Part shown: in pieces, positions 1,419 through 62,687 of the stretch
Numbering within the stretch: the first letter of the stretch is position 1
Layout of the letters: each line of letters begins with the position of its first letter
Origin: Abditibacterium sp.
GTDB taxonomy: Bacteria; Armatimonadota; Abditibacteriia; Abditibacteriales; Abditibacteriaceae
Length of the DNA stretch: 64,000 bases
Direction of reading: 5' to 3'
Assembly (NCBI GenBank): GCA_965199495.1
Contig: CBDASK010000003.1
Span: 1,376,001 to 1,440,000 of the forward strand
Made by a program: the position numbers and the translations under genes
The notes under the pieces: model-generated
Seen by the model: only the letters and a program-made list of their open reading frames with translations
Told to the model about the DNA's origin: nothing
Database searches by the model: none

Positions 1419-3275
1419 ATGGACGGAGCAGAAATTCTCTTGGAAAGCATGAAACGCGAAGGCGTTGATACCTTATTTGGTATTAGCGGCGGCGCGATTC
1501 TGCCGATTTACGACGCGTTGGGCAAACAGCAGGACATTTGGAGCATCCTCACGCGCCACGAACAGGGCGCCGGGCACATGGCCGAAGGCTACGCGCGAGC
1601 CACCGGGCGCGTTGGCACCTGCATCGGCACGTCGGGGCCGGGCGCGACCAACCTCGTCACCGCCATCACCGACGCCTACATGGACTCGACGCCGACGGTT
1701 TTCCTGAGCGGTCAAGTCGCGTCCGCCAACATCGGCAAAGACGCGTTTCAAGAGTGCGATACCTTCGGCATCACGATGCCGATTGTCAAACATTCCTATT
1801 TGCTCAAGCGCGTCGAGGACATTCCGCGCGTGGTCAAAGAGGCGTATCACATCGCGCGCACGGGTCGGCCCGGCCCGGTTTTGATTGATATTCCCAAAGA
1901 TATTTCCGAGGGCCAGTTTCCCGGCGTTTTTGAATATCCCGAAAGCGTGACTTTGCGCGGTTATCATCCCGAAACGCCCGGTGCGCCCGAACAGATCAAA
2001 GCCGCCGTGGCTCTCATCGCGCAAGCCAAACAGCCGGTGATTTACGCGGGCAATGGCGTTAATTCGTCTAACGCCGCCGACGAATTATTGGCGTTCGCCG
2101 AGAAGATTAATTGTCCGGTTACGACCACGCTTTTGGGACGCGGTGCGTTTCCCGGTGGCCACGTTTTGGCGCTCGATATGTTGGGCATGCACGGCACGGC
2201 CTACGCCAACTGGGCGGTTCACGAAAGCGATTTGATTATCGCGTTGGGAGCGCGTTTCGATGACCGCGTGACTGGCAATCCGAAGATGTTCGCGCCCAAC
2301 GCCAAAGTGATTCACGTTGATATTGACCAGGCCGAACTGGGCAAAATCCGCTTCGCGCAGGTGCCGATCTGGGGCGATGTCAAAACCGTTATTAAGCAGT
2401 TGACCGACGCCGTGGCTGCTAAACCTCGCTCGCCGTGGAACGATACGGTCGAGGAATGGAAAGAAAAAGCGCCGCTGATTTACGAAAATACCGGCAGCAA
2501 ACTCAAGCCGCAGTTCGTATTGGAAGAACTCGCCAAAGCCACCAAAGGCGAGGCGATTATGACGACCGATGTCGGCCAGCATCAGATGTGGGCGGCGCAG
2601 TATTACAACCCGAAAAATACGCGCAGCTTCATCACATCTGGCGGTCTGGGCACGATGGGCTACGGTTATCCCGCCGCGATTGGCGCCAAAGTCGGCTGTA
2701 TTATGGGACATAGAAATCCCGATACCGAAGTTTGGTGCATCACGGGCGACGGCTCGTTCCAGATGAACATTCAGGAGCTGGCGACCGGCGTTTTGTATGA
2801 TATTCCGGTTAAAATCGCGGTTTTGAACAACTCGGCGCTGGGCATGGTGCGCCAGTGGCAGAAGCTGTTTTACTCCAAGCGTTGGAGCGGCATTGACTTG
2901 TCGAAGTGTCCCGATTTCGAGAAAATCGCGCAGGCGTATTCGACGACCGGCATGACGATCACCGAACCCGATGAAGTGGCCGATGCGATTCGCGAGGCGC
3001 AGAAAAATCCCGGCACCGTCGTAATGAACTTCATGACCGACACCGAAGAAGACGTTTACCCGATGATTCCCGGCGGCAAAACCGTTCACGAAATGCGGCT
3101 CAACGGCAGTGGCAAATCGGTTCCCGTCGGCGGCTGGTCAATCGAAGATGCGCCGACGGCTTTGGAAAGCACGACCAACGGACACGCGCCCGAAAAAGCC
3201 GTCGAAACCGCCGAAGCAGGCGACTACGCGAGCGAATGGAACGACGATTTGAAATCGGGACAGATTAAAATATAG
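1419..3275 (+). CDS. ilvB: Acetolactate synthase large subunit
   Basis: RHEQGAGHMAEGYAR, TSGPGATN, SGGLGTMGYG and GDGSFQMN TPP motifs. Confidence 0.97.
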   Translation: MDGAEILLESMKREGVDTLFGISGGAILPIYDALGKQQDIWSILTRHEQGAGHMAEGYARATGRVGTCIGTSGPGATNLVTAITDAYMDSTPTVFLSGQVASANIGKDAFQECDTFGITMPIVKHSYLLKRVEDIPRVVKEAYHIARTGRPGPVLIDIPKDISEGQFPGVFEYPESVTLRGYHPETPGAPEQIKAAVALIAQAKQPVIYAGNGVNSSNAADELLAFAEKINCPVTTTLLGRGAFPGGHVLALDMLGMHGTAYANWAVHESDLIIALGARFDDRVTGNPKMFAPNAKVIHVDIDQAELGKIRFAQVPIWGDVKTVIKQLTDAVAAKPRSPWNDTVEEWKEKAPLIYENTGSKLKPQFVLEELAKATKGEAIMTTDVGQHQMWAAQYYNPKNTRSFITSGGLGTMGYGYPAAIGAKVGCIMGHRNPDTEVWCITGDGSFQMNIQELATGVLYDIPVKIAVLNNSALGMVRQWQKLFYSKRWSGIDLSKCPDFEKIAQAYSTTGMTITEPDEVADAIREAQKNPGTVVMNFMTDTEEDVYPMIPGGKTVHEMRLNGSGKSVPVGGWSIEDAPTALESTTNGHAPEKAVETAEAGDYASEWNDDLKSGQIKI

Positions 3276-3366
3276 GAGACAGGAGACGAGGGAGACAGGA
3301 AACAGAATGGCGAAGTATCAAACCAACTTCATGCTGTCTCCCTCGTCTCCTGTTTGCTGTCTCCTG
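3274..3366. repeat. Heptamer-based inverted repeat (AGGAGAC-like units)
   Basis: 3279-3298 is the reverse complement of 3334-3353, built from AGGAGAC-like units. Confidence 0.8.
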
Positions 3367-3372
3367 ATAAAA

Positions 3373-3978
3373 ATGAACAACGGAACGATAAATTCAAATG
3401 TGCCCGCGCAAGACGAAGACGTGATTGTGCAAAACGGCGTGCCGACGATTATTTCGGCGGCGGGCGTCAACGTAATGAGCGGCGACGAAACGCTCCACAC
3501 CATCTCGATTTTGGTCGAGAACCGGCCCGGCGTCTTGGCGCGCGTGTCGCACGTTTTCGCGCGGCGTGGCTTCAACCTCGAATCCCTTGCGGTCTCGCGC
3601 ACCGAAGACCACACGGTTTCGCGCATTACTGTCGTCGTCGCGGGCGATGACGAACAATTTAAACAAATTGGCAATCAATTATTCAAATTGATTGACGTGA
3701 TTAAAGTCATTGACCACACGCGCGACGATTTGGTCGGACGCGAACTGGCGCTAATTAAGATCAAGGTCGCCGATGCAGCCACGCGCGCCGAGGTTTTGCA
3801 AATCGCTGAGATTTATCAGGCTAAAGTCGTCGCCTCCGATCTCGAAACGATGATGCTGGAAGTCACCGGTAAATCGAGCAAAGTGGATGCGCTGCAAAAT
3901 ATGCTGAGCAATCACGAAATTCTCGAATTGGTGCGCACCGGTTTAATTGTGTTGAAACGCGGCGCAAAGCAGACTTGA
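3373..3978 (+). CDS. ilvN: Acetolactate synthase small regulatory subunit
   Basis: ACT domain ISILVENRPGVLARVSHVFARRGFNLESL; ELVRTG; follows ilvB; start uncertain. Confidence 0.95.
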   Translation: MNNGTINSNVPAQDEDVIVQNGVPTIISAAGVNVMSGDETLHTISILVENRPGVLARVSHVFARRGFNLESLAVSRTEDHTVSRITVVVAGDDEQFKQIGNQLFKLIDVIKVIDHTRDDLVGRELALIKIKVADAATRAEVLQIAEIYQAKVVASDLETMMLEVTGKSSKVDALQNMLSNHEILELVRTGLIVLKRGAKQT

Positions 3979-3989
3979 TTTTAAATTGG

Positions 3990-4038
3990 AATAGGACGCC
4001 AGCCGTGGGTGAACCGAAGGTTGGCGTCCTATTTTTTG
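3990..4038 (+). terminator. Intrinsic terminator after ilvN
   Basis: AATAGGACGCCAGCC...GGTTGGCGTCCTATT stem plus T-tract. Confidence 0.75.
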
Positions 4039-4040
4039 TT

Positions 4041-4862
4041 ATGTCCTCCGTTCTCGAATTCAAAGATGCGACAATTAAGTTCGGCGGCCTGACCGCCGTG
4101 GCTCCTCTGTCGTTCGCCATCCCGCAAGGGCAACTGGCGGCGATTATCGGGCCAAATGGCGCGGGCAAAACCACGGTTTTCAACCTCATTACCGGCGTTT
4201 ACGCGCCGACGGGCGGCGAAATCTGGGTCGAAGGCCAAAAGGTTGCTTCCTCTAATCGGACGCTGAAACCGCATCAGTTGGTGCGGCGTGGCATCGCGCG
4301 CACGTTTCAAAATATTCGTTTGTTCGGTGATTTGAGCGTCGCCGATAACGTGCGCGCGGCGTTCGCTTCGCGCGCGCAATATGGTTTGACCGGCAGTTTG
4401 CTGTGTAACGGACGGATGGCGAAGCGCGAAAATTGGATTGACGAAGAGACCGAAAAACTATTGGCAACGTTTGGTTTGGAACATCGCGCCCGCAACGATG
4501 CGCGCAATTTGCCTTACGGCGATCAGCGCAAACTCGAAATCGCGCGCGCCGTCGCAACCGAGCCGAAACTGTTGTTGCTTGATGAACCCACGTCGGGCAT
4601 GAACCCGTCGGAAACCGAGGAAGTTACGCAGACGATTCGGCTGGTGCGCGAGCAGTTGGGCATCACGGTTTTGTTGATCGAGCATCACATGAGTTTGGTG
4701 ATGAGCATTTGCGAGCGCGTGATTGTGTTGGACGGCGGCGTTAAAATCGCCGATGATGTGCCGGTAAATATTCAGAATAATCCGCACGTCATCGCGGCTT
4801 ATCTGGGCCAACCCGACCCGGAAGTGGACGAAGCTATTGAACAGGGCGAAGCGGTGGTTTAG
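4041..4862 (+). CDS. ABC transporter ATP-binding protein, LivG-like
   Basis: GPNGAGKTT Walker A, ARTFQNIRLF, LLLLDEP, VIAAYLG; no permease nearby. Confidence 0.9.
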   Translation: MSSVLEFKDATIKFGGLTAVAPLSFAIPQGQLAAIIGPNGAGKTTVFNLITGVYAPTGGEIWVEGQKVASSNRTLKPHQLVRRGIARTFQNIRLFGDLSVADNVRAAFASRAQYGLTGSLLCNGRMAKRENWIDEETEKLLATFGLEHRARNDARNLPYGDQRKLEIARAVATEPKLLLLDEPTSGMNPSETEEVTQTIRLVREQLGITVLLIEHHMSLVMSICERVIVLDGGVKIADDVPVNIQNNPHVIAAYLGQPDPEVDEAIEQGEAVV

Positions 4863-4917
4863 CGGAATTGGCAAAAGCGGTGATAGTCTCAGTTGCGGTC
4901 TCTTACATTCTATAAAA

Positions 4918-5679
4918 ATGCACGCGGAATTTCTCGGCACGGCTGGTTATCATCCCAGCGAAACCCGTCATACGACGGGGATTTTCGTGCCTGGTGCGGC
5001 ATCGGACGACGCGTTTTTGTTGGATGGCGGTAGCGGAACTTTTCGCCTGAACAATCGCACTTTGCCCGCGCGCCTGCACGTCTTCCTGACGCACGCGCAC
5101 CTCGATCACACGGTGGGCTTGAACTTTCTTTACGACGTGGTTTATATGCAACGCCAGATGCAGGAGCGCGACGTGGAAATCCTATTTCACGGCGACGCCA
5201 AAACGCGCGATGCGGTTTGCGGCAACTTGTTCAATCCGCTAATTTTTCCGCTTTCATTCCAATGGCAGTGGCACGAAATCGAGGCCGCCCAACCGTTTGA
5301 AGTCGCGGGCGTGCGCATCAACACAGCGTTGCTAACCCATCCCGGCGGCAGTTTGGGCTACCGTTTCGATTGGGGCACGAAAGCGCTCGGTTTCATCACC
5401 GATACCGGCGGCGACGAGAATTATTTTTCGCTGATCGAAGGCGTTGATTTACTCATTCACGAGCGCAATTTTCCCGATGAATATGCGGAACTGGCGTGCG
5501 CGTCGGGCCATTGCACTTCCAGAGATTTAATCATCGCCGGACGCGCATCGGGCGCGAGCCAAATCGCGGCGATGCATTTCAATCCATTGACCGTTGGCGA
5601 CCCTTTGGAAGAAGACGACGTTTACGCGCAGTTGCCCAACATCGTGGCGGCGAGCGACGGTTTGCAGCTCGAATTTTAG
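4918..5679 (+). CDS. MBL-fold metallo-hydrolase (RNase Z/BN-like)
   Basis: FLGTAG, THAHLDH, FITDT, LLIHE, GHCT motifs. Confidence 0.85.
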   Translation: MHAEFLGTAGYHPSETRHTTGIFVPGAASDDAFLLDGGSGTFRLNNRTLPARLHVFLTHAHLDHTVGLNFLYDVVYMQRQMQERDVEILFHGDAKTRDAVCGNLFNPLIFPLSFQWQWHEIEAAQPFEVAGVRINTALLTHPGGSLGYRFDWGTKALGFITDTGGDENYFSLIEGVDLLIHERNFPDEYAELACASGHCTSRDLIIAGRASGASQIAAMHFNPLTVGDPLEEDDVYAQLPNIVAASDGLQLEF

Positions 5680-6028
5680 CCACAAAGGGGCACAAAGAAG
5701 TAGGAGTTACACAGTTGGCCGGGCTTGTCATTCTGAGCGTGGGCGCCCTCTGGGCAGAAGGCACGAACGAAGTCGAAGAATCCAAAGGTCGCGCGTTGAC
5801 TTCGCTTTGGTCTCGTCCAGAGTCGTGGATTCTTCGACTTCGTTCGTGCCTTCTGCCCAGAGGGCGCCCACGCTCAGAATGACAAGCCCGGCCAACTGTG
5901 TAACTCCCAAGAGGATCGAAGAAACTAATTTGTAAAAGCAAAATTATGAAAATAGTGCTTCTACTTGTCAGCTTCTCCTCCCTTTCTTTGTGCCCCTTGG
6001 TGTGTTCTTGGTGCCCCTTTGTGGCTAA
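5676..6028. repeat. Outer inverted repeat (TTAGCCACAAAGGGGCAC) interrupted by an inner REP element
   Basis: 5676-5693 is the reverse complement of 6011-6028; further ~9-nt-period repeats at 5982-6010. Confidence 0.75.
5703..5907. repeat. CGTC-type REP doublet / MITE-like element (82-bp perfect arms, 41-nt spacer, GGAGTTACACAG ends)
   Basis: 5703-5784 is the exact reverse complement of 5826-5907. Confidence 0.9.
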
Positions 6029-6040
6029 CTCCATTCCCAG

Positions 6041-6817
<777 letters not shown>

Positions 6818-6833
6818 ATTCCGATTTAGGATA

Positions 6834-6853
6834 AAATTAGTTATGTCTAATTT
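6834..6853. promoter_or_regulatory. Putative DtxR/MntR-family operator (autoregulation)
   Basis: AAATTAG-N6-CTAATTT palindrome 12 nt upstream of the DtxR-family gene. Confidence 0.6.
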
Positions 6854-6865
6854 AGGGTAATCGTC

Positions 6866-7549
6866 ATGGAAAAAACGCTCAGTGCCGCGACCGAAGATTA
6901 TTTGAAAACCATTTTGCATCTGCGCGAAGAGGCGCCTTTGGGCGCGCCATTGGAAGCGATTACCACACAGGCCATTGCCAGTCGCCTCGCCGTGGCTGCA
7001 CCATCAGCCACGGCGATGATCAAGAAATTGGCGACGCTCGGTTTGGTGCGTCACACGCCTTATCATGGAGTCGAACTGACAGGCAAAGGTGAAAAAGTCG
7101 CGCTCGAAGTGACGAGGCACCATCGTTTGAGCGAGAGTTTTCTAACCGAAATTTTGGGTTTGGACTGGGACAAGGCGCACATCGAAGCCGAAAAGTGGGA
7201 GCACATTTTGAGCGAGGAAGTCGAGGCGCGCATGGCGGCGATGCTGGGCAATCCCACGCACGATCCGCACGGCTCGCCGATTCCCACGCTCGATGGCAAA
7301 ATGGCGCGCGAAGGCGGCGAACCGTTGGCGCGCCTATCCGAAGGCGCCCACGTTATCGTGCGCCGCGTGAGCGACGAGGACGCGGCGGTTTTGCGTTATT
7401 TGCACAGCGTCGGTTTGGTTCCGGGCGCCCGCGTCGAAATCGTGCGCGCCGTGCCCGCCGAAGGCGTGCTGCAAATTCGCGTCGGCGACGCGGAATATAC
7501 CGTTGGAATCGCACCTGCGATGGCGGTTGTTGTGGAGCAGTTGGATTAG
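6866..7549 (+). CDS. Metal-dependent repressor, DtxR/MntR family, with C-terminal FeoA domain
   Basis: EDYLKTI, RHHRLSESFL, HIEAEKWEH, DPHGSPIP; FeoA-like tail. Confidence 0.93.
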   Translation: MEKTLSAATEDYLKTILHLREEAPLGAPLEAITTQAIASRLAVAAPSATAMIKKLATLGLVRHTPYHGVELTGKGEKVALEVTRHHRLSESFLTEILGLDWDKAHIEAEKWEHILSEEVEARMAAMLGNPTHDPHGSPIPTLDGKMAREGGEPLARLSEGAHVIVRRVSDEDAAVLRYLHSVGLVPGARVEIVRAVPAEGVLQIRVGDAEYTVGIAPAMAVVVEQLD

Positions 7550-7572
7550 AAAGGCGTGGCTTTCTTCAACAT

Positions 7573-8193
7573 CTATCGTTGCTTACCTTCAATCGCTTCC
7601 AAAAGCATCGCCAGCGCCAGCACCAAACGGCGGTCATAAGCTGGATTGGGTTGATTGAAAGTGATTTCCATGCGCGACGAAAACGGGTTGCGTCCCTGCT
7701 GAAACGTCGCGATTTGCTGGCCGCCAACGGTAATATCATAACGTTGCGGCATGAGCATACTGGCGTGTTCCACAAAGCGTCGGATGATGCCAAAGAGCGC
7801 GCTGTCTTCTTGACACAGCCCGATTTCGGCGTCGTTCCAATCCATAATCGTCCAGGTGTCCTGCATGAAACTCGATTTCATGCCCTGACGCTTGAAGGCG
7901 CCCAACTTTTGGTTGGTCGCCGAATCGTAGACATCATAAGCCGCGCTGAAATCCAAAATCGAGCGCGCGCTGACGCGCAACAGTTCCTGCGATTTATTCT
8001 CGTCCGAGTAAATCCGAAAATCTTCTTTGAGCTTGAAGGCTTTCTGCGAGGCCCATAACACCAAATTTTCCTGCGGATCGTAGAGATAAAAAGTGCCGCC
8101 AAACGCTTGCAAGAATTTTTTGGTGATGACGTATTTTTGATGATTGAAACGCGGGTCTTTGGCGCCTTGGTTGGAAGCGAGGGGATTTTGCAT
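7573..8193 (-). CDS. LURP-one/scramblase-like protein
   Basis: QKAFKLKEDFRIYSDE and ARSILDFSAAYDV pattern typical of Tubby/scramblase-fold proteins. Confidence 0.7.
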   Translation of the reverse strand: MQNPLASNQGAKDPRFNHQKYVITKKFLQAFGGTFYLYDPQENLVLWASQKAFKLKEDFRIYSDENKSQELLRVSARSILDFSAAYDVYDSATNQKLGAFKRQGMKSSFMQDTWTIMDWNDAEIGLCQEDSALFGIIRRFVEHASMLMPQRYDITVGGQQIATFQQGRNPFSSRMEITFNQPNPAYDRRLVLALAMLLEAIEGKQR

Positions 8194-8294
8194 CGTTAGT
8201 ATTTTGACAGAGTTTCCGATTTCACGCAGAGAACAAAAACGGAGCGCACGAAGTTAATTTGCCATCCCGCGCGATTCACGGTGAACTACCGTGC

Positions 8295-9347
8295 GTGACT
8301 CCCATTCGTTTCGCCATCGTCGGGGCGGGCAACATCGCCAATTTCCACGCACAAGCCATTCATTCCGTTGAGGACGCCGAACTCGTCGCCGTTCATTCGC
8401 GCCGCGCCGCGCCGGGCGAGGAATTCGCCCGTAAATATAACGCCGAATTCATCGGCGACTACAATACCCTGCTCGCGCGCGCCGACATTGACGCGATTTG
8501 CATCACGACGCCATCGGGCACGCACACCGAGTTGGGCGTGGCTGCTGCGCGCGCGGGCAAACACGTTTTGACCGAAAAACCGCTCGATATTACGCCGCAA
8601 CGCATTGATGAACTGGTCAAAGTTTGCGCCGAAAACAATGTTCAACTGGGCGGCATTTTTCAGGCACGCTTTGGCAAAGGCGCCCAAGCGCTCAAAGCAG
8701 CCACGGCGGCTGGACGATTCGGCAATTTGGCGTGGGCTTCAGCGTATGTGCCGTGGTATCGCAGCGAAGAATATTACCAATCGGCGGGCTGGCGCGGCAC
8801 TTGGGATTTGGATGGCGGCGGCGCCTTGATGAACCAATCCATTCACGCGATTGATTTATTGTTGTGGCTGGCGGGCGACTGGGACGAAGTTTCGGCGCGT
8901 TGTTCCAACGCGCTACACACCGAATTGGAAGTCGAGGACACCGCGATGGCGTGGATTAAATTCAAAAGTGGCGCGACCGGCGTCATTCAAGGTTCGACGG
9001 CGTGTTATCCCGGTGAACTCAAGCGCGTCGAACTCAAAGGCTCAACCGGCAGCGCGACTTTGGTAGACGATATGCCGACGTTGTGGGAATTTAAAAACGC
9101 GCAACCGGGCGACGACGAAGTGCGCGATTGGGCAAATCAAGCGCAAATCGGCGGCGGTGCCGCCGATCCAATGGCGATTTCAATCGAAGGCCACCGCGCG
9201 CAAATCGAAGATTTCGCCAACGCGATTCGGGAAAATCGCGAACCAGCGATTCCGGGCCGCGACGGGCGCAAAGCCGTCGAGTTGATTTGCGCGATTTATC
9301 AGTCGAGCCGGGAAAACGCGATTGTGCGGAGAGGAGAAACCCGATGA
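8295..9347 (+). CDS. Gfo/Idh/MocA oxidoreductase
   Basis: FAIVGAGNIA, GKHVLTEKP, GGGALMNQSIHAID. Confidence 0.93.
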   Translation: MTPIRFAIVGAGNIANFHAQAIHSVEDAELVAVHSRRAAPGEEFARKYNAEFIGDYNTLLARADIDAICITTPSGTHTELGVAAARAGKHVLTEKPLDITPQRIDELVKVCAENNVQLGGIFQARFGKGAQALKAATAAGRFGNLAWASAYVPWYRSEEYYQSAGWRGTWDLDGGGALMNQSIHAIDLLLWLAGDWDEVSARCSNALHTELEVEDTAMAWIKFKSGATGVIQGSTACYPGELKRVELKGSTGSATLVDDMPTLWEFKNAQPGDDEVRDWANQAQIGGGAADPMAISIEGHRAQIEDFANAIRENREPAIPGRDGRKAVELICAIYQSSRENAIVRRGETR

Positions 9348-53297: not shown

Positions 53298-53456
53298 TTA
53301 GCCACCATTGGACTGCCCACGCTCAGGCGGCATCGTGGGGGCCGCTTTTCCCGATGTGGGCGGCGGAGTCGTTGGTTCTTCTTCTTTGCTGCCGCATCCG
53401 GTGAGAGCGGTCGCAGCCAGAGCGGAGAGGGTCAGAGCAATTAAGATTGGTTTCAT
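53298..53456 (-). CDS. Small lipoprotein (52 aa, below the ORF-track cutoff)
   Basis: MKPILIALTLSALAATALTGCGSKEEEPTTPPP...: signal peptide with LTGC lipobox, followed by a terminator. Confidence 0.75.
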   Translation of the reverse strand: MKPILIALTLSALAATALTGCGSKEEEPTTPPPTSGKAAPTMPPERGQSNGG

Positions 53457-53487
53457 GGGAATTGAGCACATCGTGCCACGCTAAGTA

Positions 53488-53610
53488 TTACTGAGTGTTG
53501 GGGCTAAAGCTATATCCGGTCGCGTTGGTCGGCGGATTAATTTTGTCCGGCTTGAGCCACTTGACGTGCCCATCGGCAAAAGCGTAATTGGCGCCATCCA
53601 AGTGACGCGT
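53488..53610 (-). pseudogene. C-terminal fragment of a prepilin-type H-X9-DG (DUF1559-like) gene
   Basis: TRHLDGANYAFADGHVKWLKP...; in-frame TAA directly upstream and no start codon. Confidence 0.82.
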
Positions 53611-53711
53611 TTATACCCAATTCTTCTGTTTTTCAAACATTGTCGAACTAAAGACGAAAACATTTCGGTCTCACAAAGCGCGAACGCGCGAAAGTGTTCA
53701 ATTTTAGCGCG

Positions 53712-53763
53712 TTGGCAACACGAAACAACTACGAGCCGAGTCACGGTTGTTTCGTGTTGCCAA
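53712..53763. terminator. 18-bp stem hairpin after the FHA gene
   Basis: TTGGCAACACGAAACAAC/GTTGTTTCGTGTTGCCAA; weak U-tract. Confidence 0.55.
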
Positions 53764-53770
53764 ACAAAAT

Positions 53771-54508: not shown

Positions 54509-54515
54509 AATATTA

Positions 54516-54591
54516 GGTGACAAGTAACAAGTGGCAAGTGACAAGGAGCGGAGGCGGGAGATAAAAGGGGCGAAACTTGCCACTTGTCACC
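54516..54591. repeat. Heptamer-based inverted repeat (ACAAGTG units)
   Basis: GGTGACAAGTAACAAGTGGCAAGTGACAAG ... ACTTGCCACTTGTCACC. Confidence 0.75.
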
Positions 54592-54597
54592 GTTGCG

Positions 54598-55860
54598 CTA
54601 CGCTAATCGTTTCGTTTTCTTCGTTTCGTTGCTCGAAACCGCCAGATCATCGGCAGAAATCGCGCCACCAGAATCCAAAGTCTCTTCCATCTCTTCCAAA
54701 ACTTTAGTCGCGGCGACTTTGCCCAAACGCTGCGTCATTTTCTTTTTGCGCTCCAAAACTTGCGTCATCTTGCGCTTGTCGCCGCTTTTCACGGCGGCTT
54801 CGAGGTCAACTTGCAATTTGTAATCGTTGGCTTCTTCGATAAGCCGCACCACTTCGCCGTTACGCTGCGCCAGTTCGACATCGTTATCGGAATAGCCCGT
54901 CAAAACATTCGCTTCGGCGCGCGCATTGGGACTGGCGCTGTTCCACGCGGCGATTTGACACAGCAAATCGCGGCTTTTGGCGCCGACTGGCGCGCTCGTC
55001 ACCACATCCAACAGATACGCTTGCGGCTGATCGTTTTGAATCGAGCCAACGGAAATCTTGAACGAATTATCCGAAACCGTCGGCGCATCGAAAACTTTTT
55101 TATCAGGCACCACGCGCCAGAAACGGCGCGGTTTGCCATTGAGTCTCGAAACTTCAATCGTCACGTCCGACATCACCGTTGAGGCGATGCGGCCAAATTC
55201 GTCCTGAAAAACTTCGCTCAGCGCTTCGGGCGTGGCGGCCATCAGGAATTTGCCGGAGCCTTTGTCGGCCAAATCACGCAGAAACGCGGCGTCGTAATCA
55301 GCGGGGTCGCCCAATCCAATCGTCGAAAGCGAGACGCCGTTGCTCTCGAACTCGGTTTTGCCGCGTTCGAGAAACTTCTCCAAATCGCGGTCAATAAAGC
55401 CCTGTGAATCGGTCGGCTGACCGTCGCTCAGCAAAATCACAAACGTCGTCACGGCGGGGCTGGCGTGCGGCGCGATCTCTTTGAAGATGGTATTTAAACC
55501 GGTCAATAATTCGGTCGCGCCTTCGACGCGCACGTCTTGGACGGCACCTTTGGCGCGCATTTTCATGCCTTCGCCGAACTGTGTCGCGGGCACGATGATG
55601 CGCGAACCGCTGGAAAACACGGCGACAGTTGCGCGGTCATCGGGCGAGAGTTTGTCGAGAATCAGCGAACAGGCGCGCTTGGCGTTTTCGAGTTTCGGCC
55701 CTTCCATCGAGCCGGAGTTATCGAGCAAAATGCCCAGATTGAGCGGCAACGTATTCATGCCGCGTCCGGGCGAAAGTTCGAGCAGAATGGTTTGCAGAAA
55801 GTCGCCGCGCGTGGGGCGAAACTCTTTATCTAAAGCGGTGCGAAGACTTAAATCGGGCAT
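54598..55860 (-). CDS. vWA domain protein
   Basis: MIDAS LDNSGSM, GATEL, LLSDGQP, STIGLG. Confidence 0.9.
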   Translation of the reverse strand: MPDLSLRTALDKEFRPTRGDFLQTILLELSPGRGMNTLPLNLGILLDNSGSMEGPKLENAKRACSLILDKLSPDDRATVAVFSSGSRIIVPATQFGEGMKMRAKGAVQDVRVEGATELLTGLNTIFKEIAPHASPAVTTFVILLSDGQPTDSQGFIDRDLEKFLERGKTEFESNGVSLSTIGLGDPADYDAAFLRDLADKGSGKFLMAATPEALSEVFQDEFGRIASTVMSDVTIEVSRLNGKPRRFWRVVPDKKVFDAPTVSDNSFKISVGSIQNDQPQAYLLDVVTSAPVGAKSRDLLCQIAAWNSASPNARAEANVLTGYSDNDVELAQRNGEVVRLIEEANDYKLQVDLEAAVKSGDKRKMTQVLERKKKMTQRLGKVAATKVLEEMEETLDSGGAISADDLAVSSNETKKTKRLA

Positions 55861-55876
55861 TGGGTTTTAGTTTAAG

Positions 55877-56389
55877 TTACGGGCGCACGCGTTGCGGCAA
55901 ATACGCGTCCAAAACGCGATTGAGCCGTTTGTTAAAGCGCGGATTCAGTTTGTAATTCATTGGAGGAGAAGGAAAGGAATATCCATTTTTCCCCCTCACT
56001 TGTTTCACAATTTCGCTCGAAGTTGCGTTTTGGAAGAGAATGATGCCATAGAGATACCGTCCCTTTTTGTAAAACGATAAGTTGATAAAAATTGACTTCT
56101 GATTCTGAGATGGGCTGACTTCTTTGTCAAACACGCGAATTTTGTCAATAACATCGCGCGTTTGTTCGGCGTCCAAGGGGCCAAATTTCAGTTGCTCGTC
56201 GCCAACGCAAGAAGAGTTTTGGCAACGTGCCTGAGTTGCCTTCATGCTGTCGGCGCCCGCGACGAGGGCGCGAAACTCTTTATCCGCTTTCGTCAAAGGC
56301 GGATGATCCAAGCGATAATTGACGCCCCACAGCGCCGCGCCGACGACGAGTAACAGCGTGAGTGCGAGGATTAACGGTTTGCGTTTCAT
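55877..56389 (-). CDS. Hypothetical membrane-anchored protein with AT-rich core
   Basis: N-terminal TM helix; GC-rich termini and AT-rich middle. Confidence 0.7.
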   Translation of the reverse strand: MKRKPLILALTLLLVVGAALWGVNYRLDHPPLTKADKEFRALVAGADSMKATQARCQNSSCVGDEQLKFGPLDAEQTRDVIDKIRVFDKEVSPSQNQKSIFINLSFYKKGRYLYGIILFQNATSSEIVKQVRGKNGYSFPSPPMNYKLNPRFNKRLNRVLDAYLPQRVRP

Positions 56390-56404
56390 AAGTTTAGTGA
56401 AAAC

Positions 56405-56869
56405 TCACGCAGTCCAATTCCCGACATATTTCACCGACGGCATCGCCGCCGAAACGGTGTTGAACAGCTTCTTATCCGCCGTCCATAATTCCACGCCGCG
56501 CGCCTGTGCCAGAGCTAAATACGTCGCGTCATAACAACGCACCATCGCAAAGCGTATCGCCAGTTCGCGCGCGAGTTGGCGGGTTTCGTCGAACACAATT
56601 TCAATTGGGAGCGCATCAATCAACGCGTGGGCGTTCGCCTCATCTTCGGGGGCAAGAGTCTTTTTGATTTGCACGCGCAAACGAATAGAACTACTCGTCT
56701 CACTTTCCCAAAGCGGCGGCGCAATGAAGCGCGCGCCCGCTTTGCCCAAGGACGCCAACAAACCCAGCGCGGATGCTTGCATTGGTTCGTCGGCAAAGCT
56801 CGCCGCGATAGCAACACTTGCGTCTATCGCCACGAAAAGCGGAGTTTGTGAAGTGGGATTAATCTGCAA
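56405..56869 (-). CDS. VapC/PIN-domain toxin
   Basis: VAIDASV, YDATYLALA, LWTADKKL; probable TTG start overlapping the antitoxin end. Confidence 0.88.
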   Translation of the reverse strand: MQINPTSQTPLFVAIDASVAIAASFADEPMQASALGLLASLGKAGARFIAPPLWESETSSSIRLRVQIKKTLAPEDEANAHALIDALPIEIVFDETRQLARELAIRFAMVRCYDATYLALAQARGVELWTADKKLFNTVSAAMPSVKYVGNWTA

Positions 56870-57125
56870 GTTCTTCCATCCTACCCGCGCGCACTTCTTC
56901 CAAGTCCGCTGCCGCATTCATGGGGCCAAGAGATCGGATAGGATTGGCTTTAATATATGCAACGGCGCATTCCATCGGAGACAAAGTGCGCTCCGATTCC
57001 GTCTCAGAGCCAAGCACCCGCCGCGCCGCTTCCAGCAGCCAAGCGCCAGCATCCGTGTTCTGCGCTCTTGCCGCCGCCTGAATCTGCGCTTCTAAATTAT
57101 TAGGGATTTCGATTTTCAATATCAT
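56859..57125 (-). CDS. Putative antitoxin
   Basis: Small gene upstream of and overlapping the PIN gene; RHH-like N-terminus LKIEIPNNLEAQIQAAAR; AGGAG RBS. Confidence 0.75.
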   Translation of the reverse strand: MILKIEIPNNLEAQIQAAARAQNTDAGAWLLEAARRVLGSETESERTLSPMECAVAYIKANPIRSLGPMNAAADLEEVRAGRMEELAD

Positions 57126-57261
57126 TGGTTCGCTCCTTTAGTTTTTACCCCAGCCACGCCGACCAAGTCCAACCGCGCAATGGCGTTATAGCCTTGGATT
57201 GTTTCTCGTGTCATGATTTTAGCTCAGTTTAATTCATGAACAAATTCGATGGGATTTTCGC

Positions 57262-58278
57262 TTACTTTTCGCCCACAAACGCGACGCTATTTTCCGCCAA
57301 TGCATCAATTTGTTCCAACGCGCGGCCCAATCCGTTGGCGACGCACGAGAGCGAATCTTCGGCAACGTGAACGTCCAAACCGGTGACTTCAGCGATTTTT
57401 TTATTCAATCCACGCAACTGGGCGCCGCCGCCCGAAAGCCATAGACCGTTTTGCGCGATGTCGTTGGCCAATTCGGGCGGCGTCTGTTCCAAAACCGCGC
57501 GCACGCACGCGATGATTTGATTGACCGGATCGGCAATCGCCTCGCTCAGTTCGGCGCTCGAAATTTCAATGGATTTGGGCATACCATCGCCCAAATCGCG
57601 CCCACGCACTTCAAATTTGGGTTCGGGCGATTGCGGCCACGCCGAGCCGATGGCGAGTTTGATTTCTTCGGCGCTGCGTTCGCCCAGCAAAATGTTGTGG
57701 GCACGCCGAATCTGCCGGTGAATCGCTTCGTCGAATTTGTCGCCGCCCACGCGAATCGTGGCGTTGACGACCGTGGCGCCCAGCGAAATCACCGCGACAT
57801 CGGACGTGCCACCGCCAATGTCCAACACCAATTGTCCTGACGCTTCGCCGACGCCCAAACCCAAACCCAATGCCGCCGCCATCGGCTCTTCCAAAACCCA
57901 GACTTCGCGCGCGCCCGCCGCACGACACACATCCAAAACCGCCTGCTTTTCAACGCTCGTCACGTCGCAGGGCGCGCTGACGACAACGCGTGGCCGCGTG
58001 ACGTTAAATCGTCCATTGAGGCGCACGAAAAAATGACGCAACATCGCTTCGGTCGCGGTAAAGTTGGCGATGGCACCGTCGCGAATCGGGCGAATAATCT
58101 CGATAGTGCCGGGGCTGCGTCCCGTCATTTCGAGCGCCGCCGTGCCATACGCTTTGGGTTCGCCCGTCGTCTTGACGAGCGCGACAACCGAAGGCTCGCG
58201 CAGCACGATGCCACGGCCTTTCTGGAAAATCACCGTGTTCGAGGTGCCAAGGTCAATACCTAAATCGCGGGAAAACAT
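57262..58278 (-). CDS. mreB: Rod-shape-determining actin-like protein
   Basis: GIDLGTSNT, REPSVVA, EEPMAAA, DIGGGTSDVAVIS, LEQTPPEL. Confidence 0.92.
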   Translation of the reverse strand: MFSRDLGIDLGTSNTVIFQKGRGIVLREPSVVALVKTTGEPKAYGTAALEMTGRSPGTIEIIRPIRDGAIANFTATEAMLRHFFVRLNGRFNVTRPRVVVSAPCDVTSVEKQAVLDVCRAAGAREVWVLEEPMAAALGLGLGVGEASGQLVLDIGGGTSDVAVISLGATVVNATIRVGGDKFDEAIHRQIRRAHNILLGERSAEEIKLAIGSAWPQSPEPKFEVRGRDLGDGMPKSIEISSAELSEAIADPVNQIIACVRAVLEQTPPELANDIAQNGLWLSGGGAQLRGLNKKIAEVTGLDVHVAEDSLSCVANGLGRALEQIDALAENSVAFVGEK

Positions 58279-58298
58279 GGGTCGGATATTTCGGATTG

Positions 58299-58506
58299 CG
58301 GATTTCGGATTTCGGATGGTGGTGCGCTTTGTCATTTCGAGTGAGGCACGAACCGAGAAATCTTGCGGCCCCGCGCCAGCGGAAGTCAGTCGTTCTTTTC
58401 ATTTCGGAAGTCGCTTCAACCTGCGCTGCCGCGCGGGCGTAAGATTTCTCGGTTCGTGCCTCACTCGAAATGACAAAGCGCACCACCATCCGAAATCCGA
58501 AATCCG
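58299..58506. repeat. CGTC-type REP doublet with variable 35-nt core inside (TTTCGGA)n arms (copy 3 of 3)
   Basis: 66-bp perfect arms 58299-58364 / 58441-58506; same inner stem as 26364 and 30404. Confidence 0.9.
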
Positions 58507-58509
58507 AAC

Positions 58510-61314
58510 TTACTTGCCCCGGCTCGGCGGCGGAATAACGAACGGCGGAATTTCAATCGGGCCGGGCGGAAGCGGGCGCAAATTGCCGGGCAATGGGCGC
58601 GTTGTCGGCGGCGGCGGCAAAATGACGGGCGGCGGCAACGGGCTGGGCGTCGCAGGCTGAATTGTCGGCGGCGGCGTAATCAGCGGCGGAAGGGGCGCCA
58701 CGAACGGCGGTTGCGTGGACGGGCCGCTGATAATCGGGGGCGGCGCCGTGGCTCCTGTTCCGCTATCAACGGCGCCCTGCAACGTGAAGCCCAGCGTGCC
58801 GCGCAGGGCCGAAGTTAAACGGCCTTCGGGCAGAAAAGTCGCTGTGTTGTCCCACCACGGGAAATTGCCGTTTTCGCGGCCCCAATCCAAAACTTCGCCC
58901 TCGTCGTTGTGCAAAAGCCAGCCAAATCGCACGATGTCGTCGCGTTGCGCCAACTTCTGCGGGTCAATGCCGGGCAGCGCCGCAAGCGGAATCGCGGCTT
59001 CGTAAAATGTCAAATTGCCGCGCTCGTCGCGCCGGATCGCGCAATTGGAGCCGGGCACTTGGCCGCCCCAACGCACGCGGTCGGTCGCGCGATTGAAACC
59101 AATATCGTTGCCCCACAATTTCAAGACGCGCCCGTCGTATTGGCCCGCGCCCGATTGGCCAAACGGCGCAATCAAAAAGCCCAGATCGCTGTCGCGAAAC
59201 GGCGCGCGCGCGGGCGCGGTTTCGGGCGTATCGGACGTGCCAAACGCCAGTTGAATCGCGTCGTGACCGCGCCAGAAATCATACGAACTTTCTTCAACGC
59301 GGCGCGGCGAAACGGCTGGCTCGTGGACTTCGGCGGCCAGATAAAGCGTCTGCGCGTCCCATTTGAACGCCAATTTTCCTTTGACTTTGGCGGCGTTTGG
59401 CCCGGCGTTCATCCAAATCGCGTCCTTCCAATCGCTCAAATCGCCGTCAACAACCGGGCGCGCGCCCGGCGCCACGTTGAGCGCCGTCGCGACCGGCGGA
59501 TCGAAACGCCAATCGGTGCGATTATCGGCGCGCACGATCACGCGAAATGGGTCGCCGTCGCGCCGGGGCGAAATGCCGCGCGCCGTGGTTTCCAATAAAC
59601 GAAACTCGTAAGTCTTCGATTCGCCCGCAGCCAGATTCACATCGTATTTGTCCTGCGCCGGTTTCCACGAGCGCGGCACGTCGAGTTCGATGGTGCCTTT
59701 TTGCGGGCTGATGCCGATATTTTGCAAACGCACGCGCACCGCCGCGCTGCCCGGCGCCGAAGCGGCGGCGTCGCGGCTGAGCGGCATCATTTGCGCGGCA
59801 ATCGAACGCAAGCCGCTGATTTTGGCGCGATTAAGCGCGAACGTCAAAACGTCGGGCGTGCCGTCGCTGAAAACGTAGATCGGTTGGCCCGCGATGTCGA
59901 ATTTGAGTTTGCCATCGCGCGCCGTGGCTATGGTGTTGCCAAACACGTCAACGGCGCGGCCCTGCGCCAGTTGCAGTTCCATTTGGCCGCGTCCGTCGGG
60001 CGCGTAAACCACACCGACGCCGCCGCGCGGCAACTGAAACAGCGCGCCTTCGAGCATCGGCGATTTGGGGAATAATTCTTCTTTGAACGCCGCGTCTTCG
60101 AGCGTGCGCGACAGCATGGCGAAGGCCGCGCCGCGTGCCATCGCGTCCTGGCCGTTGTTGTCGCCGCGCGGCGGCGCCAGCGATTCGGCCATCGAAGAGG
60201 CGCCAGCCACAATCGCCGACAGATAATCCGCCGTCAGCGAACCCGCAGCCACGTCGGGCGTTTCACCCGCGCCCGCGATGCGCGCGACATCGCGGCGCAG
60301 ATGAAACGAACTCAACCCGGCATTGCGCGCCGCCTGGGCGCGCGAAAGCCACAACCGGCGCAACGCCGCCGGATGCGTGACAGGCGTCGTCGGCCAATTG
60401 AACGTCACGCCATCGAGGGCTTTGATCTTGACGCTGGCGTTGGAAGGCAACGTCGGCAAACCGGTCGGCAACGGCCCCAAAAGTTTCACGTCGGAGCGGC
60501 GCGCGCGCGCGACCTGCGCCCACGCGTCCAAGTCGGTCGGCGCGACTTCGCCCGCCAATTCCCACGTCGAAAGCGCGCCATAACGCGCCAGATTGGTCGG
60601 CACTTGGCGCGACCAAAACGCTTGTGAGCGTCCCGAATCGTCGTCGCCCAGCGGCAACAGCGCGATGCTGGCCAGATTGCGCCGGATGCGTTCGCCCAAC
60701 TGGGTTTCGACGGCGCTCCAGTTGGGGTTAACCGGATCAATTGGGAGCGGCGAGCGCAAAACGCGCGCGCCCATGCGACTATAAAAATCGAGCTGGAGCG
60801 GCGACAAATCGCCCGGCGTGCTTAACACGAAAAACGACTGCGGACGCGCGATGGCGCGCGCGCCCGCCGGGGGCGCGGTGATAATGGCGAAGGGGATTTT
60901 CTGGCGCAATTCAAAGTCGGGACCTTTGACTTTGACTTTGGCCGAAACATCGAGCAAATAAGCGCCGCGCGCGCTGGCATCGAACAGCTCGCGGCGCACC
61001 AGAAGTCCGTTGGCGTCGGCGTTCAATTGCGTGTTGCGCCTGAGAACTTCGTGGCCGCTCGCATCGGTGATGCGCCATTGCAAATCCACGCGCCGGTCTT
61101 CGGTCGCCGGGTTTTCGACGCGCGCGGTAAACAAAATCGGCGTTTGGGTGCCCAAGGTGTCGCGGTCGTAAAAAACGCCGGTCGGTTCTTCGGCGCGCAC
61201 CGTCAAAGTCGGCGCGCCCGACCCCGACTGAGCCAAAGCCAACGGCAGAAGCCGAGGCGCCAAAAGCGGCGTCGCCAGCAGAGCAATAAAAAGAGAAAGC
61301 GAAGAGATTTTCAC
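58510..61314 (-). CDS. Large secreted protein with CBM9/DOMON-like domain and Pro-rich tail
   Basis: Signal peptide; PVVDGDLSDW..WDAQTLYLA..YEAAIP; poly-Pro C-terminus. Confidence 0.75.
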   Translation of the reverse strand: MKISSLSLFIALLATPLLAPRLLPLALAQSGSGAPTLTVRAEEPTGVFYDRDTLGTQTPILFTARVENPATEDRRVDLQWRITDASGHEVLRRNTQLNADANGLLVRRELFDASARGAYLLDVSAKVKVKGPDFELRQKIPFAIITAPPAGARAIARPQSFFVLSTPGDLSPLQLDFYSRMGARVLRSPLPIDPVNPNWSAVETQLGERIRRNLASIALLPLGDDDSGRSQAFWSRQVPTNLARYGALSTWELAGEVAPTDLDAWAQVARARRSDVKLLGPLPTGLPTLPSNASVKIKALDGVTFNWPTTPVTHPAALRRLWLSRAQAARNAGLSSFHLRRDVARIAGAGETPDVAAGSLTADYLSAIVAGASSMAESLAPPRGDNNGQDAMARGAAFAMLSRTLEDAAFKEELFPKSPMLEGALFQLPRGGVGVVYAPDGRGQMELQLAQGRAVDVFGNTIATARDGKLKFDIAGQPIYVFSDGTPDVLTFALNRAKISGLRSIAAQMMPLSRDAAASAPGSAAVRVRLQNIGISPQKGTIELDVPRSWKPAQDKYDVNLAAGESKTYEFRLLETTARGISPRRDGDPFRVIVRADNRTDWRFDPPVATALNVAPGARPVVDGDLSDWKDAIWMNAGPNAAKVKGKLAFKWDAQTLYLAAEVHEPAVSPRRVEESSYDFWRGHDAIQLAFGTSDTPETAPARAPFRDSDLGFLIAPFGQSGAGQYDGRVLKLWGNDIGFNRATDRVRWGGQVPGSNCAIRRDERGNLTFYEAAIPLAALPGIDPQKLAQRDDIVRFGWLLHNDEGEVLDWGRENGNFPWWDNTATFLPEGRLTSALRGTLGFTLQGAVDSGTGATAPPPIISGPSTQPPFVAPLPPLITPPPTIQPATPSPLPPPVILPPPPTTRPLPGNLRPLPPGPIEIPPFVIPPPSRGK

Positions 61315-61456
61315 GCGAAGACCTTGAGTTTGAGGCAAAGTGGTATTTGGAACGCAAAGAAGCGAAGTCGTTGCTGAGATTTTATGCCGGTTACTTATTT
61401 TGCCTCGGCTCTCCTAATTTGTCATGGGTGCAGAATGACAAGGAGAAACTTCTCAC

Positions 61457-61738
61457 CTATAAATCCAACCGCGCCTTCACTTCGTCCGCGCTCAATCCGC
61501 GAACGCGCACACTTTTCTCGCGTCCGCGCGCGCCCCGCACCAATTCAACGCTCGATTTCGGCACACCCAGCGCCTTTGCCAAAACTTTGATCACGCTCGC
61601 ATTGGCCTCGCCATCAGTCGGCGCGGCGCGCACGCTGAGTGTTAAGCGGCCCTCGCGTTCTCCGGTAATTGCGTCTTTGCTCGCGCGCGTCGTCACGCGA
61701 ATGGCGAGCAAAACGTCGGCGTTATCGTCGCGAATCAT
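61457..61738 (-). CDS. DUF167/YggU family protein
   Basis: VRAAPTDGEANASVIKVLAKALGVPKS..GARGREK. Confidence 0.9.
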   Translation of the reverse strand: MIRDDNADVLLAIRVTTRASKDAITGEREGRLTLSVRAAPTDGEANASVIKVLAKALGVPKSSVELVRGARGREKSVRVRGLSADEVKARLDL

Positions 61739-61744
61739 GCCAAT

Positions 61745-62542
61745 TTATGCGCCCAATTCGCGCGAGCGCTCGGCAGCAGCCACGACGGCGTCCATGACAA
61801 CTCCGCGAAAACCGCCGCGCTCCAATTCATGAATGGCGGCGATGGTGGTGCCGCCGGGCGAAGCCACGCGATCTTTCAAAACGCCGGGATGATCGCCGGT
61901 TTCGAGAACCATCTGAGCGGCGCCCAAAACGGTTTGCGCGGCCAACTGCTGCGCCGTTGCGCGTGGCAAACCGGCACAAACGCCGCCATCGGCCAGCGCC
62001 TCAATGAACGCGAAAACATAAGCCGGGCCGCTACCCGAAACGCCGACAACGCCGTCCATCTGGCTTTCGGGAATCGTAACGCACAGTCCGACGGCCTCGA
62101 ACAAGGCGCGCGCTTTGGCCAAATCCGCGTCGCGCGCGTATCGCCCCGCGCAAATCGCCGCCGCGCCCGCCCCGACAAGCGACGGCGTGTTGGGCATCGC
62201 GCGCACGACGGGAACCGGCTGGGCGAAGCACGCCTCGATGCGCGCCGTCGAGGCACCCGCCAAAACCGAAACGACCAATTGATTGGGCGTGATTTGTTCG
62301 CGCAACTCGGCGAGCGCACTTTCGAGTTGGTGCGGCTTCATCGCCAACACGAGGATTTCGGCATCATGCGCGGCCTCGCGGGCCGACGTGGCTGCACGCG
62401 CGCCCAACTCGTCGGCCAACGCACTTGCCCTTGATGGACTGAACAAAACGATGTCGGTCGGCGCCCAAAGTTTGGCGCCCACTAAACCGCGAACTAACGC
62501 CTGCGCCATCGCGCCCGCGCCGAGAAATGCGAGTTTTGCCAT
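61745..62542 (-). CDS. proC: Pyrroline-5-carboxylate reductase
   Basis: FLGAGAMA, RAMPNTP, SGSGPAY, VASPGGTT. Confidence 0.96.
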   Translation of the reverse strand: MAKLAFLGAGAMAQALVRGLVGAKLWAPTDIVLFSPSRASALADELGARAATSAREAAHDAEILVLAMKPHQLESALAELREQITPNQLVVSVLAGASTARIEACFAQPVPVVRAMPNTPSLVGAGAAAICAGRYARDADLAKARALFEAVGLCVTIPESQMDGVVGVSGSGPAYVFAFIEALADGGVCAGLPRATAQQLAAQTVLGAAQMVLETGDHPGVLKDRVASPGGTTIAAIHELERGGFRGVVMDAVVAAAERSRELGA

Positions 62543-62559
62543 GAATTACGGAATTGCTT

Positions 62560-62687
62560 CGGGCGCCGTGGCTTCCGTAGAGACGCCGATTTATCGCGTC
62601 TAAAACGTAACACTTGCCTTTTCATTAAAACAAGCTCAACTTTTTAGACGCGATAAATCGGCGTCTCTACGGAAGCCACGGCGCCCG
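62560..62687. repeat. GTAG-type REP doublet (46-bp perfect arms, 36-nt spacer) with GCCGTGGCT in both arms
   Basis: 62560-62605 is the reverse complement of 62642-62687; same REP core as 39175. Confidence 0.92.

Follow-up and report, generated by a model that had tools for sequence, protein, structure and literature searches.

Introduction

The closest described counterparts of the sequence word reported here are the DNA uptake sequences (DUS) of Neisseriaceae, the uptake signal sequences (USS) of Pasteurellaceae, the highly iterated palindrome HIP1 and the recombination signal Chi. Only two families have been described as taking up DNA in a sequence-specific manner (10.1101/2025.10.24.684340). 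USS are already known to be evenly spaced (PMC1939737, PMC2817400), and HIP1, the function of which is said to have been open for 30 years (PMC13756078), raises transformation (10.1101/2024.09.10.611283). Here, a window of 64,000 nucleotides (C3:1376001-1440000) from the genome of an Abditibacterium sp. (G000; assembly of 4.81 Mb, 95% complete) was analysed, in which a preliminary description had singled out by eye the 9-mer GCCGTGGCT as a candidate uptake sequence. The word to which this 9-mer belongs is real, under DNA-level constraint and lineage-specific. It is also apparently undescribed, as a literature search, with most subscription papers outside its reach, turned up neither these words nor any sequence-specific uptake for this lineage. 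The consensus differs from GCCGTCTGAA and AAGTGCGGT and the host lineage, judged from the names of homologues, lies outside both families; the word is therefore not a Neisseria or Pasteurellaceae dialect.

A dispersed word in the Abditibacterium chromosome

The window holds 27 exact copies of GCCGTGGCT (18 on the plus and 9 on the minus strand) against 0.82 expected from base composition, in line with the earlier estimate of about one, although the GC content of about 58% behind that estimate is in fact 55.7%. The 26 coordinates first listed are all correct, and one minus-strand copy, at 6476, had been overlooked. CGCCGTGGCT extends 25 of the 27 exact copies, and CGTGGCT cores in all contexts number 58. 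As a unit, however, the 9-mer is too short: a single-mismatch scan gave the longer consensus CG[C>G>A]CGTGGCTG(C)(T). The copies in the window are as follows.

2003..63805, both strands: dispersed word, consensus CG[C>G>A]CGTGGCTG(C)(T)
2408, 6988, 9910, 11534, 13486, 23508, 27111, 30230, 33646, 33869, 35725, 40404, 54410, 62384 (starts), plus strand: full 11-mer
7005, 8698, 10821, 24663, 34761, 39461, 45086, 48586, 50211, 57151, 60246 (leftmost base), minus strand: full 11-mer
2004, 2409, 4095, 6989, 9911, 13487, 18652, 27112, 33647, 33870, 35726, 40405, 42516, 52224, 54411, 58745, 59921, 62565 (span 2004..62573), plus strand: exact GCCGTGGCT, 18 copies
6476, 7006, 8699, 17216, 24664, 27919, 39462, 54137, 62674 (span 6476..62682), minus strand: exact GCCGTGGCT, 9 copies
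6988..7015: close inverted pair of full 11-mers within an MntR/DtxR-like gene, read as Ala-Val-Ala and Ala-Thr-Ala

Genome-wide, GCCGTGGCT occurs 1504 times, CGCCGTGGCT 1374 times and CGCCGTGGCTG 1051 times (525+/526-), the latter two being the most frequent 10-mer and 11-mer of the whole genome. Any single change at positions 1, 2 or 4-10 of the 12-mer CGCCGTGGCTGC (690 copies) leaves 0-26 copies. The chromosome carries 2112 copies of CG[C/G/A]CGTGGCTG (CGVCGTGGCTG; 1045+/1067-), of which 91% are genic and 179 intergenic, with coding and intergenic counts resting on gene calls from a simple custom caller. The reading frames first noted in the window, Ala-Val-Ala, Ala-Thr-Ala and Pro-Trp-Leu, account for 11, 11 and 1 of the exact copies; one further copy reads Ser-His-Gly and three lie outside called genes.

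Constraint at the DNA level

Within genes, CGCCGTGGCTG, the commonest variant, occurs 961 times versus 20.1 ± 3.3 in 10 synonymous shuffles and 199 ± 7 in 5 dicodon-given-protein simulations, the latter null being inflated by the word itself. The enrichment therefore persists under codon-preserving nulls, which had been proposed as a check, at 48-fold and 4.8-fold, respectively. Two reading frames hold 830 of the 961 coding copies, 497 copies are sense and 464 antisense relative to transcription, and the flanks of the copies are unrelated to each other.

In 49 orthologues of the related genome G011, the rare codon GCT is kept at 21 of 23 positions within the word versus 64 of 132 elsewhere, and GCA at 8 of 8 versus 26 of 91; a cruder test against common control words gave no separation (third-position identity 103/112 versus 112/126). 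Orthologue alignment showed that 16 of 28 sites are kept in G011 and 5 of 27 in G004, and none of 16-29 each in G006, G009, G010 and G012, often with different residues. As the orthologues are colinear without indels at most sites, copies arise by substitution. The word is sparser in 41 highly conserved genes (0.20/kb) than in 45 variable genes (0.57/kb), and slightly denser in repair (0.67/kb, 12 genes) and competence (0.61/kb, 14 genes) sets than the 0.49/kb of genes overall. Tripeptide enrichment is mixed: per 10,000 residues, against 179 word-free orthologues, DVA (8.0 vs 4.2), ATA (8.3 vs 4.4) and SHG (2.0 vs 1.0) are raised, whereas AVA (11.3 vs 10.2) and GVA (6.5 vs 6.2) change little. 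These comparisons show a word written by a sequence-specific process, by point substitution into permissive codons chromosome-wide, and kept at silent positions.

Replichore polarity, another proposed check, is absent: with the skew minimum near dnaA as the divide, the two strands carry 382/408 copies on one side and 503/500 on the other. The GC skew of G000 is weak, yet no stretch is strand-biased, the cumulative strand walk is tighter than under permutation (range 43 versus 62), and copies show no bias towards ori or ter. The word is depleted on small contigs and in low-GC islands. Contigs C1 and C2, putatively plasmid-like and phage-like by eye, together hold 1 copy against 40 expected, and five bins below 50% GC hold 0.6 copies per 10 kb versus 4.5 overall, low-GC islands making up many of the long gaps. 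The AT-rich segment of the window at 44-48 kb indeed lacks the exact 9-mer, as first described, but contains a full-strength variant at 45086.

44001..48000: low-GC segment (0.486) with a sirtuin and a split dGTPase; no exact 9-mer, one variant 11-mer

In this island (45430-47785, minus strand), the sirtuin gene is followed by a dGTPase gene cut into two same-frame open reading frames by a stop codon; the arrangement resembles an anti-phage pair.

Close inverted pairs, also noted earlier, exceed expectation 2.4-fold; as 33 of the 46 are located within genes or overlap them, the pairs are mostly not terminators in G000. The CpG-poor 3' flank proved marginal (0.099 versus 0.122 per position in the first 6 bases, and above background farther out).

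Strand-specific spacing of the word

Same-strand pairs of the word at 40-300 bp number 13 against 122.9 expected (0.11), whereas opposite-strand pairs number 111 against 122.8 (0.90); at 100 bp or less, 3 same-strand pairs stand against 47 expected. The same-strand ratio of observed to expected pairs is 0.13 at 100-300 bp, 0.30 at 400-600 bp, 0.54 at 600-800 bp and 0.71 at 800-1000 bp, reaching about 1 past 1.5 kb, while opposite-strand pairs stay near 1 throughout, apart from an excess at 25 bp or less, genes included. Five control words put through the same test showed no such exclusion. The exclusion crosses gene borders (same versus opposite strand, 4 vs 21 at 40-300 bp and 26 vs 70 at 300-600 bp), which, together with the equal sense and antisense use, rules out a one-per-gene or RNA-level cause. 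Taken as a functional read-out, it defines the core as [C/G]GTGGCT, with TGTGGCT, CGTGGCA and CGTGGCG unrepelled. A directional form of the exclusion was rejected, weak sites being depleted about equally 5' and 3' of strong sites. These data show that one copy makes a second copy in the same orientation redundant for about 1 kb, with the opposite orientation counted separately, and that an orientation-aware process acting at the DNA level fills each strand up to saturation, which is reached at one strong site per 3-4.5 kb.

A USS genome (G307; 1273 AAGTGCGGT copies), examined through a small sample of 137 sites in 223 kb, gave observed/expected values of 0/10.9 for same-strand versus 7/10.8 for opposite-strand pairs at 40-300 bp, and of 9/12.6 versus 11/12.5 at 300-600 bp. 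The first 50 forward Chi sites of Escherichia coli gave 3 same-strand pairs versus 2.7 expected, showing no exclusion. The strand-resolved spacing test is cheap, parted USS-like words from Chi in these controls and is applicable to all genomes. No strand-resolved account of USS spacing was found in the literature search, including the accessible parts of PMC1939737 and PMC2817400.

Dialects within the family

CGVCGTGGCTG is abundant in three of 27 family genomes (2113 copies in G000, 1776 in G011 and 720 in G004; 12-94 in the rest), which form one clade with 100/100 support in a ComEC tree (a single gene, 17 rows). The assignment of G000 to Abditibacteriaceae draws on homologue names, its PilC sharing 81% identity with the Abditibacterium utsteinense protein. 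In G004 the word is lengthened to (T)AGGACGTGGCTGGTGTC and often forms intergenic inverted doublets in hairpins. The palindrome RAGTACTY reaches 0.7-1.2 per kb in G014, G018 and G032-G035, with background levels in the other 21 genomes, and G017 carries 2981 copies of GTACGGTCGA, chiefly as hairpin doublets. Altogether 10 of the 27 genomes bear such a word, and the dialects follow lineage. Neighbour depletion extends to 0.4-1 kb in six word-bearing relatives, in small samples that include one G004 stretch with short direct repeats.

In the other 17 genomes, neither samples of 3-140 kb nor two genome-wide patterns revealed a word. Their de novo scans covered G002, G006, G009, G010 and G012 (96-100 kb each), G038 (140 kb), G016 and G031 (60 kb), G013 and G007 (40 kb), G036, G003 and G015 (31-38 kb), G037 and G005 (10-17 kb), and G001 and G008 (3 kb). 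On contig G005:C98, five RAGTACTY copies, out of only 9 in the whole genome, are clustered within 5 kb; they may stem from a relative with the palindrome dialect or from faulty binning.

The palindromes are built around GTAC, a tetramer that G000, G004 and G011 avoid (0.02-0.11 of expectation). As a separate observation, G000 very strongly avoids many palindromes, including TTCGAA (176 vs 7515), CGGCCG (32 vs 4780), CTAG (194 vs 5227), GGWCC and CCWGG, with relatives partly alike, and encodes MjaI-, BsoBI- and EcoRV-type restriction pairs.

A possible self-DNA mark for transformation

From sequence comparison, we give about an even chance to the reading that the word serves as a self-DNA mark for natural transformation, acting like DUS and USS. 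This reading is favoured because a USS genome shows the same spacing signature, because dialects and terminator-like doublets exist and because acquired DNA is poor in the word. The search for competence genes suggested earlier was successful: comEC (859 residues), comEA, dprA, recA and secretins are intact in G000, as is the pilB-pilT-pilC-pilD-pilin operon. A reader on the uptake route, either a pilus-associated protein or the duplex-to-single-strand step at ComEC/DprA, would favour fragments with the word in one orientation, and through repeated rounds of uptake and recombination new copies would become fixed until both strands are covered. Such coverage could be reached by independent single sites (G000, G011), by inverted doublets in intergenic hairpins (G004, G017) or by palindromes serving both strands (G014, G018, G032-G035). 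The idea of an undescribed uptake dialect, as first put forward, thus gains from the nulls, the lack of polarity, the depletion in acquired DNA, the lineage dialects, the competence genes and the USS-like spacing, but loses from the equal presence of competence genes in word-free relatives and from several dialects being HIP1-like palindromes.

Several observations weigh against a role as an uptake mark. The competence genes comEC (in 30 of 31) and comEA (in 25 of 27), and a gene for a minor pilin-like protein (in 23 of 27), occur regardless of the word. No receptor of the ComP/ComN type was recognised among the pilin-like genes of the operon, which gave N-methyl/DUF1559 matches or none, in a survey without a search aimed at ComP. 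In G000 the density of copies is higher within genes (0.49/kb) than in intergenic DNA (0.23/kb), whereas DUS and USS are reportedly under-represented in coding sequence (PMC2817400), and no AT tracts adjoin the G000 copies, whereas USS flanks are AT-rich. As regards spacing, the G307 control is small and its exclusion is over by about 600 bp. A Neisseria DUS control, comprising 50 non-overlapping loci of 75 (0.9 Mb) selected by their inverted-pair pattern, was only weakly asymmetric between same-strand and opposite-strand pairs (0.60 vs 0.77; 0.82 vs 1.29 for singlets). USS uptake across the outer membrane was reported to be independent of orientation (PMC1939737). The grouping of all the family's words into one putative system relies on their common density and spacing, and the link with AddAB loss described below is not foreseen by an uptake model.

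Since their presence is the same in word-free relatives, comEC, comEA, the secretins and the minor pilin-like gene, which occurs family-wide, were rejected as determinants of the word. The type IV pilus operon (G000:C3:861001-881000) ends in two paralogous proteins of 1291 and 1328 residues without Pfam matches. Its 597-residue pilin-like protein shows 55% identity between G000 and G011, compared with 91-96% for housekeeping genes.

Apparent AddAB loss and a possible recombination mark

In G000, the search for AddAB/RecBCD returned one UvrD-family match, two unrelated PD-(D/E)XK matches and no AddB, in a genome 95% complete and without a RecC profile search. Of the 13 genus genomes, 10 encode an AddA/RecB-like helicase and its partner; the pair was not found in G000, G004 and G011, precisely the genomes that bear the word. 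These three genomes are 87-95% complete, so AddB counts as not found rather than proven absent. AddB had no match in the 14 other family genomes. Overall, a word is carried by 10 of 17 AddB-less family genomes and by none of the 10 AddB-bearing ones (either genome-wide pattern). The apparent loss of AddAB is the clearest correlate of the word, based on few independent events and incomplete assemblies. Synteny with relatives revealed no replacement gene at the addAB locus of G000.

It is possible, if doubtful, that the word is an orientation-dependent mark for intracellular recombination or end processing, a Chi substitute for an AddAB-independent machine of the RecJ/RecQ/UvrD/RecFOR or SbcCD type. 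A break anywhere would then need a correctly oriented site within 1-2 kb each way, so that each strand would keep an evenly spaced set, and a translocating reader would directly yield orientation-specific redundancy. Besides the AddB distribution within the genus and across the family, such a mark accords with the single UvrD-family helicase of each of G000, G004 and G011, and with reports that cyanobacterial recBCD occurs mainly in marine picocyanobacteria (PMC5101192), that these are without HIP1 enrichment (PMC13756078) and that the HIP1 effect survives addAB deletion (10.1101/2024.09.10.611283). However, the three word-bearing genomes are one clade and hence a single event in the genus, where AddB was not found in incomplete assemblies, and seven AddB-less genomes showed no word (17-140 kb samples). 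Moreover, 50 E. coli Chi sites gave no sign of exclusion, no reader was found, and palindromic dialects are unlike any known Chi, as stated in 10.1101/2024.09.10.611283.

Transformation self-mark and recombination mark may both hold, as argued for HIP1 (10.1101/2024.09.10.611283). We tentatively suggest, as a speculation with the odds against it, that Abditibacteriaceae could be the third family with sequence-tagged chromosomes, where the DUS-like and the HIP1-like words would be two forms of one mark, required once on each strand every 1-2 kb. The reader would be a strand-specific processing step common to transformation and break repair that takes over without AddAB. Its specificity would have been rewritten at least three times in the family, apparently dodging GTAC restriction in the G000 clade. 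If this is true, marks of this kind, USS among them, would generally be diagnosable by same-strand-only exclusion, a criterion as yet unreported. Because one small family combines words of the non-palindromic, palindromic and doublet types with sister clades free of any word and with gains and losses patterned against AddAB, a comparison of about 27 genomes should be enough to find the reader, and a cultured relative would allow it to be tested. In practice, addition of the word could render this untransformed lineage genetically tractable.

Methylation, nucleoid binding and artefacts

A one-strand methylation mark for mismatch repair, built up by Elhai's ratchet as proposed for HIP1, is an improbable source of the word. 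Under this model, a new site would be fixed only where no same-strand mark lies within the repair tract (about 1 kb), leading to same-strand-only exclusion for a non-palindromic mark. Saturation is foreseen near one site per 1000 nt (PMC4390886), and the palindromic dialects stand at 0.7-1.2 per kb. In addition, mutS, mutL and uvrD are present, and mutL is fragmented, perhaps through misassembly, in G031, the sole word-free g6 genome. G000, G011 (90%) and G004 (88%) each have an intact CcrM-like adenine methylase, which is in two pieces in G006 and was not found in G003 or G007. CcrM targets GANTC, which does not occur in the word, and the N6/N4 methylases of G014 and G035 include no orthologue of the CcrM-like enzyme; the gene is a weak lead only. 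No methylase examined tracks all dialects, in a family survey that left out Dam-type and gamma-class enzymes: C5 methylases were not found in G014 or G032, an orphan beta-class methylase occurs in 22 of 27 genomes, word-free ones included, and not in G004, and an MmeI-like gene is in neither G011 nor G004. The MutL C-terminal motif, too, is identical in word-rich and word-free genus members.

Candidate readers were accordingly set aside: the MmeI-like and orphan beta-class methylases for the distributions just given, an Eco57I-like gene with only a 32-34% match in G004, a methylase adjoining mutS that belongs to the MjaI-type restriction pair, and C5 methylases whose distribution does not follow the words. 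No support was found for CAGCCAC and CAAGTAC as MmeI-type sites. The orphan beta-class adenine methylase is itself conserved at 58-91% across the 22 genomes. The canonical MutL endonuclease motif is DQHA..E....E, and MutL of the genus reads NQHRAHE..LA[D/A] at this position in the 12 genomes read, which may mean an altered nicking step.

Binding by a nucleoid or chromosome-organising protein is very unlikely to account for the word. Its even, unpolarised spread, its surplus of inverted pairs no more than 25 bp apart, in genes too, and a structural role once proposed for HIP1 (PMC5861425) would suit such a site, but the lack of ori or ter bias and the fast turnover (16/28 sites kept in G011, 5/27 in G004) would not, and duplex binding gives no obvious cause for a 1-kb exclusion of the same orientation only.

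A codon, dicodon or mobile-repeat artefact is scarcely credible: although two frames account for most coding copies and those of G004 and G017 often lie within repeated hairpins, the excess over both coding nulls, the near-equal sense and antisense counts, the unrelated flanks, the word's rarity beside GTAG repeats (3/294), its absence from sister clades of similar composition and the lack of exclusion in five control words all speak against it.

Repeats and neighbouring genes

Spread as a repetitive extragenic palindrome or other mobile repeat was rejected for want of extended shared flanks and because merely 179 of 2112 copies are intergenic. The word adjoins only 3 of 294 GTAGAGAC repeats in G000, indicating that the repeat is not spreading it. 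One such arrangement lies at the end of the window, in which an Rfam search gave no match.

62565..62682: inverted word pair around two inverted GTAG-type repeats (GTAGAGACGC family, 99 genome copies)

G000 has at least four intergenic repeat families, namely GTAG-type GTAGAGACGC (99) and GTAGAGACAC (161), GGTCTTGTGAGA (131) and GTCATTCTGAG (121), and intergenic repeats lie in the window at 62577-62670, 39177, 1112-1241 and 5727-5883. A 168-residue gene at G000:C3:1749731, without a Pfam match, presumably resembles a RAYT-type transposase by its motif. The window also encodes a VanW-domain protein (12883-14103, minus strand) and a GNAT-like protein with a weak BspF match (10838-11809, minus strand), both far under curated cut-offs.

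Comparison with known systems

Chi (E. coli GCTGGTGG, read by RecBCD/AddAB; PMC5101192) is likewise short, non-palindromic, over-represented and orientation-dependent. The G000 word differs in its lack of replichore polarity, in a host in which AddAB/RecBCD was not found, and in its same-strand exclusion, which Chi does not show. Canonical Chi is disfavoured because AddAB/RecBCD was not found in G000, and canonical Chi and the FtsK-orienting polar sequences (KOPS) fail two tests, the word being unpolarised.

HIP1 and alternative HIPs (PMC4390886, PMC5861425, PMC13756078, 10.1101/2024.09.10.611283) resemble the family's RAGTACTY in form and density. HIP1 also arises by substitution, is replaced by other words in lineages avoiding its core tetramer and tends to occur without RecBCD/AddAB. 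It differs from the G000 word in being a palindrome, a form met by six relatives and not by G000, and belongs to another phylum. No cognate methylase for the word was matched among those examined (Dam-type and gamma-class enzymes not surveyed family-wide).

DUS (PMC3630211, 10.1101/2025.10.24.684340) share with the words of Abditibacteriaceae the lineage-specific dialects within one family and, in G004 and G017, the inverted doublets in terminator-like hairpins; in G000, 13 of 46 close pairs are intergenic. DUS dialects, however, are non-palindromic variants of one word, whereas the Abditibacteriaceae words are palindromic and non-palindromic with little common sequence, and DUS spacing is weakly strand-specific, unlike that of the G000 word.

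USS (AAGTGCGGT; PMC2817400, PMC7811141, PMC1939737) differ from the G000 word in sequence, phylum and AT-rich flanks, in the range of exclusion (less than 600 bp versus about 1-1.5 kb) and in their depletion in genes, which the G000 word does not share. Both are non-palindromic, with thousands of copies on both strands at about one per kb, originate by point mutation mostly in permissive codons with a frame bias, and are scarce in recently acquired DNA. Exclusion confined to the same strand is common to the G000 word and the USS genome.

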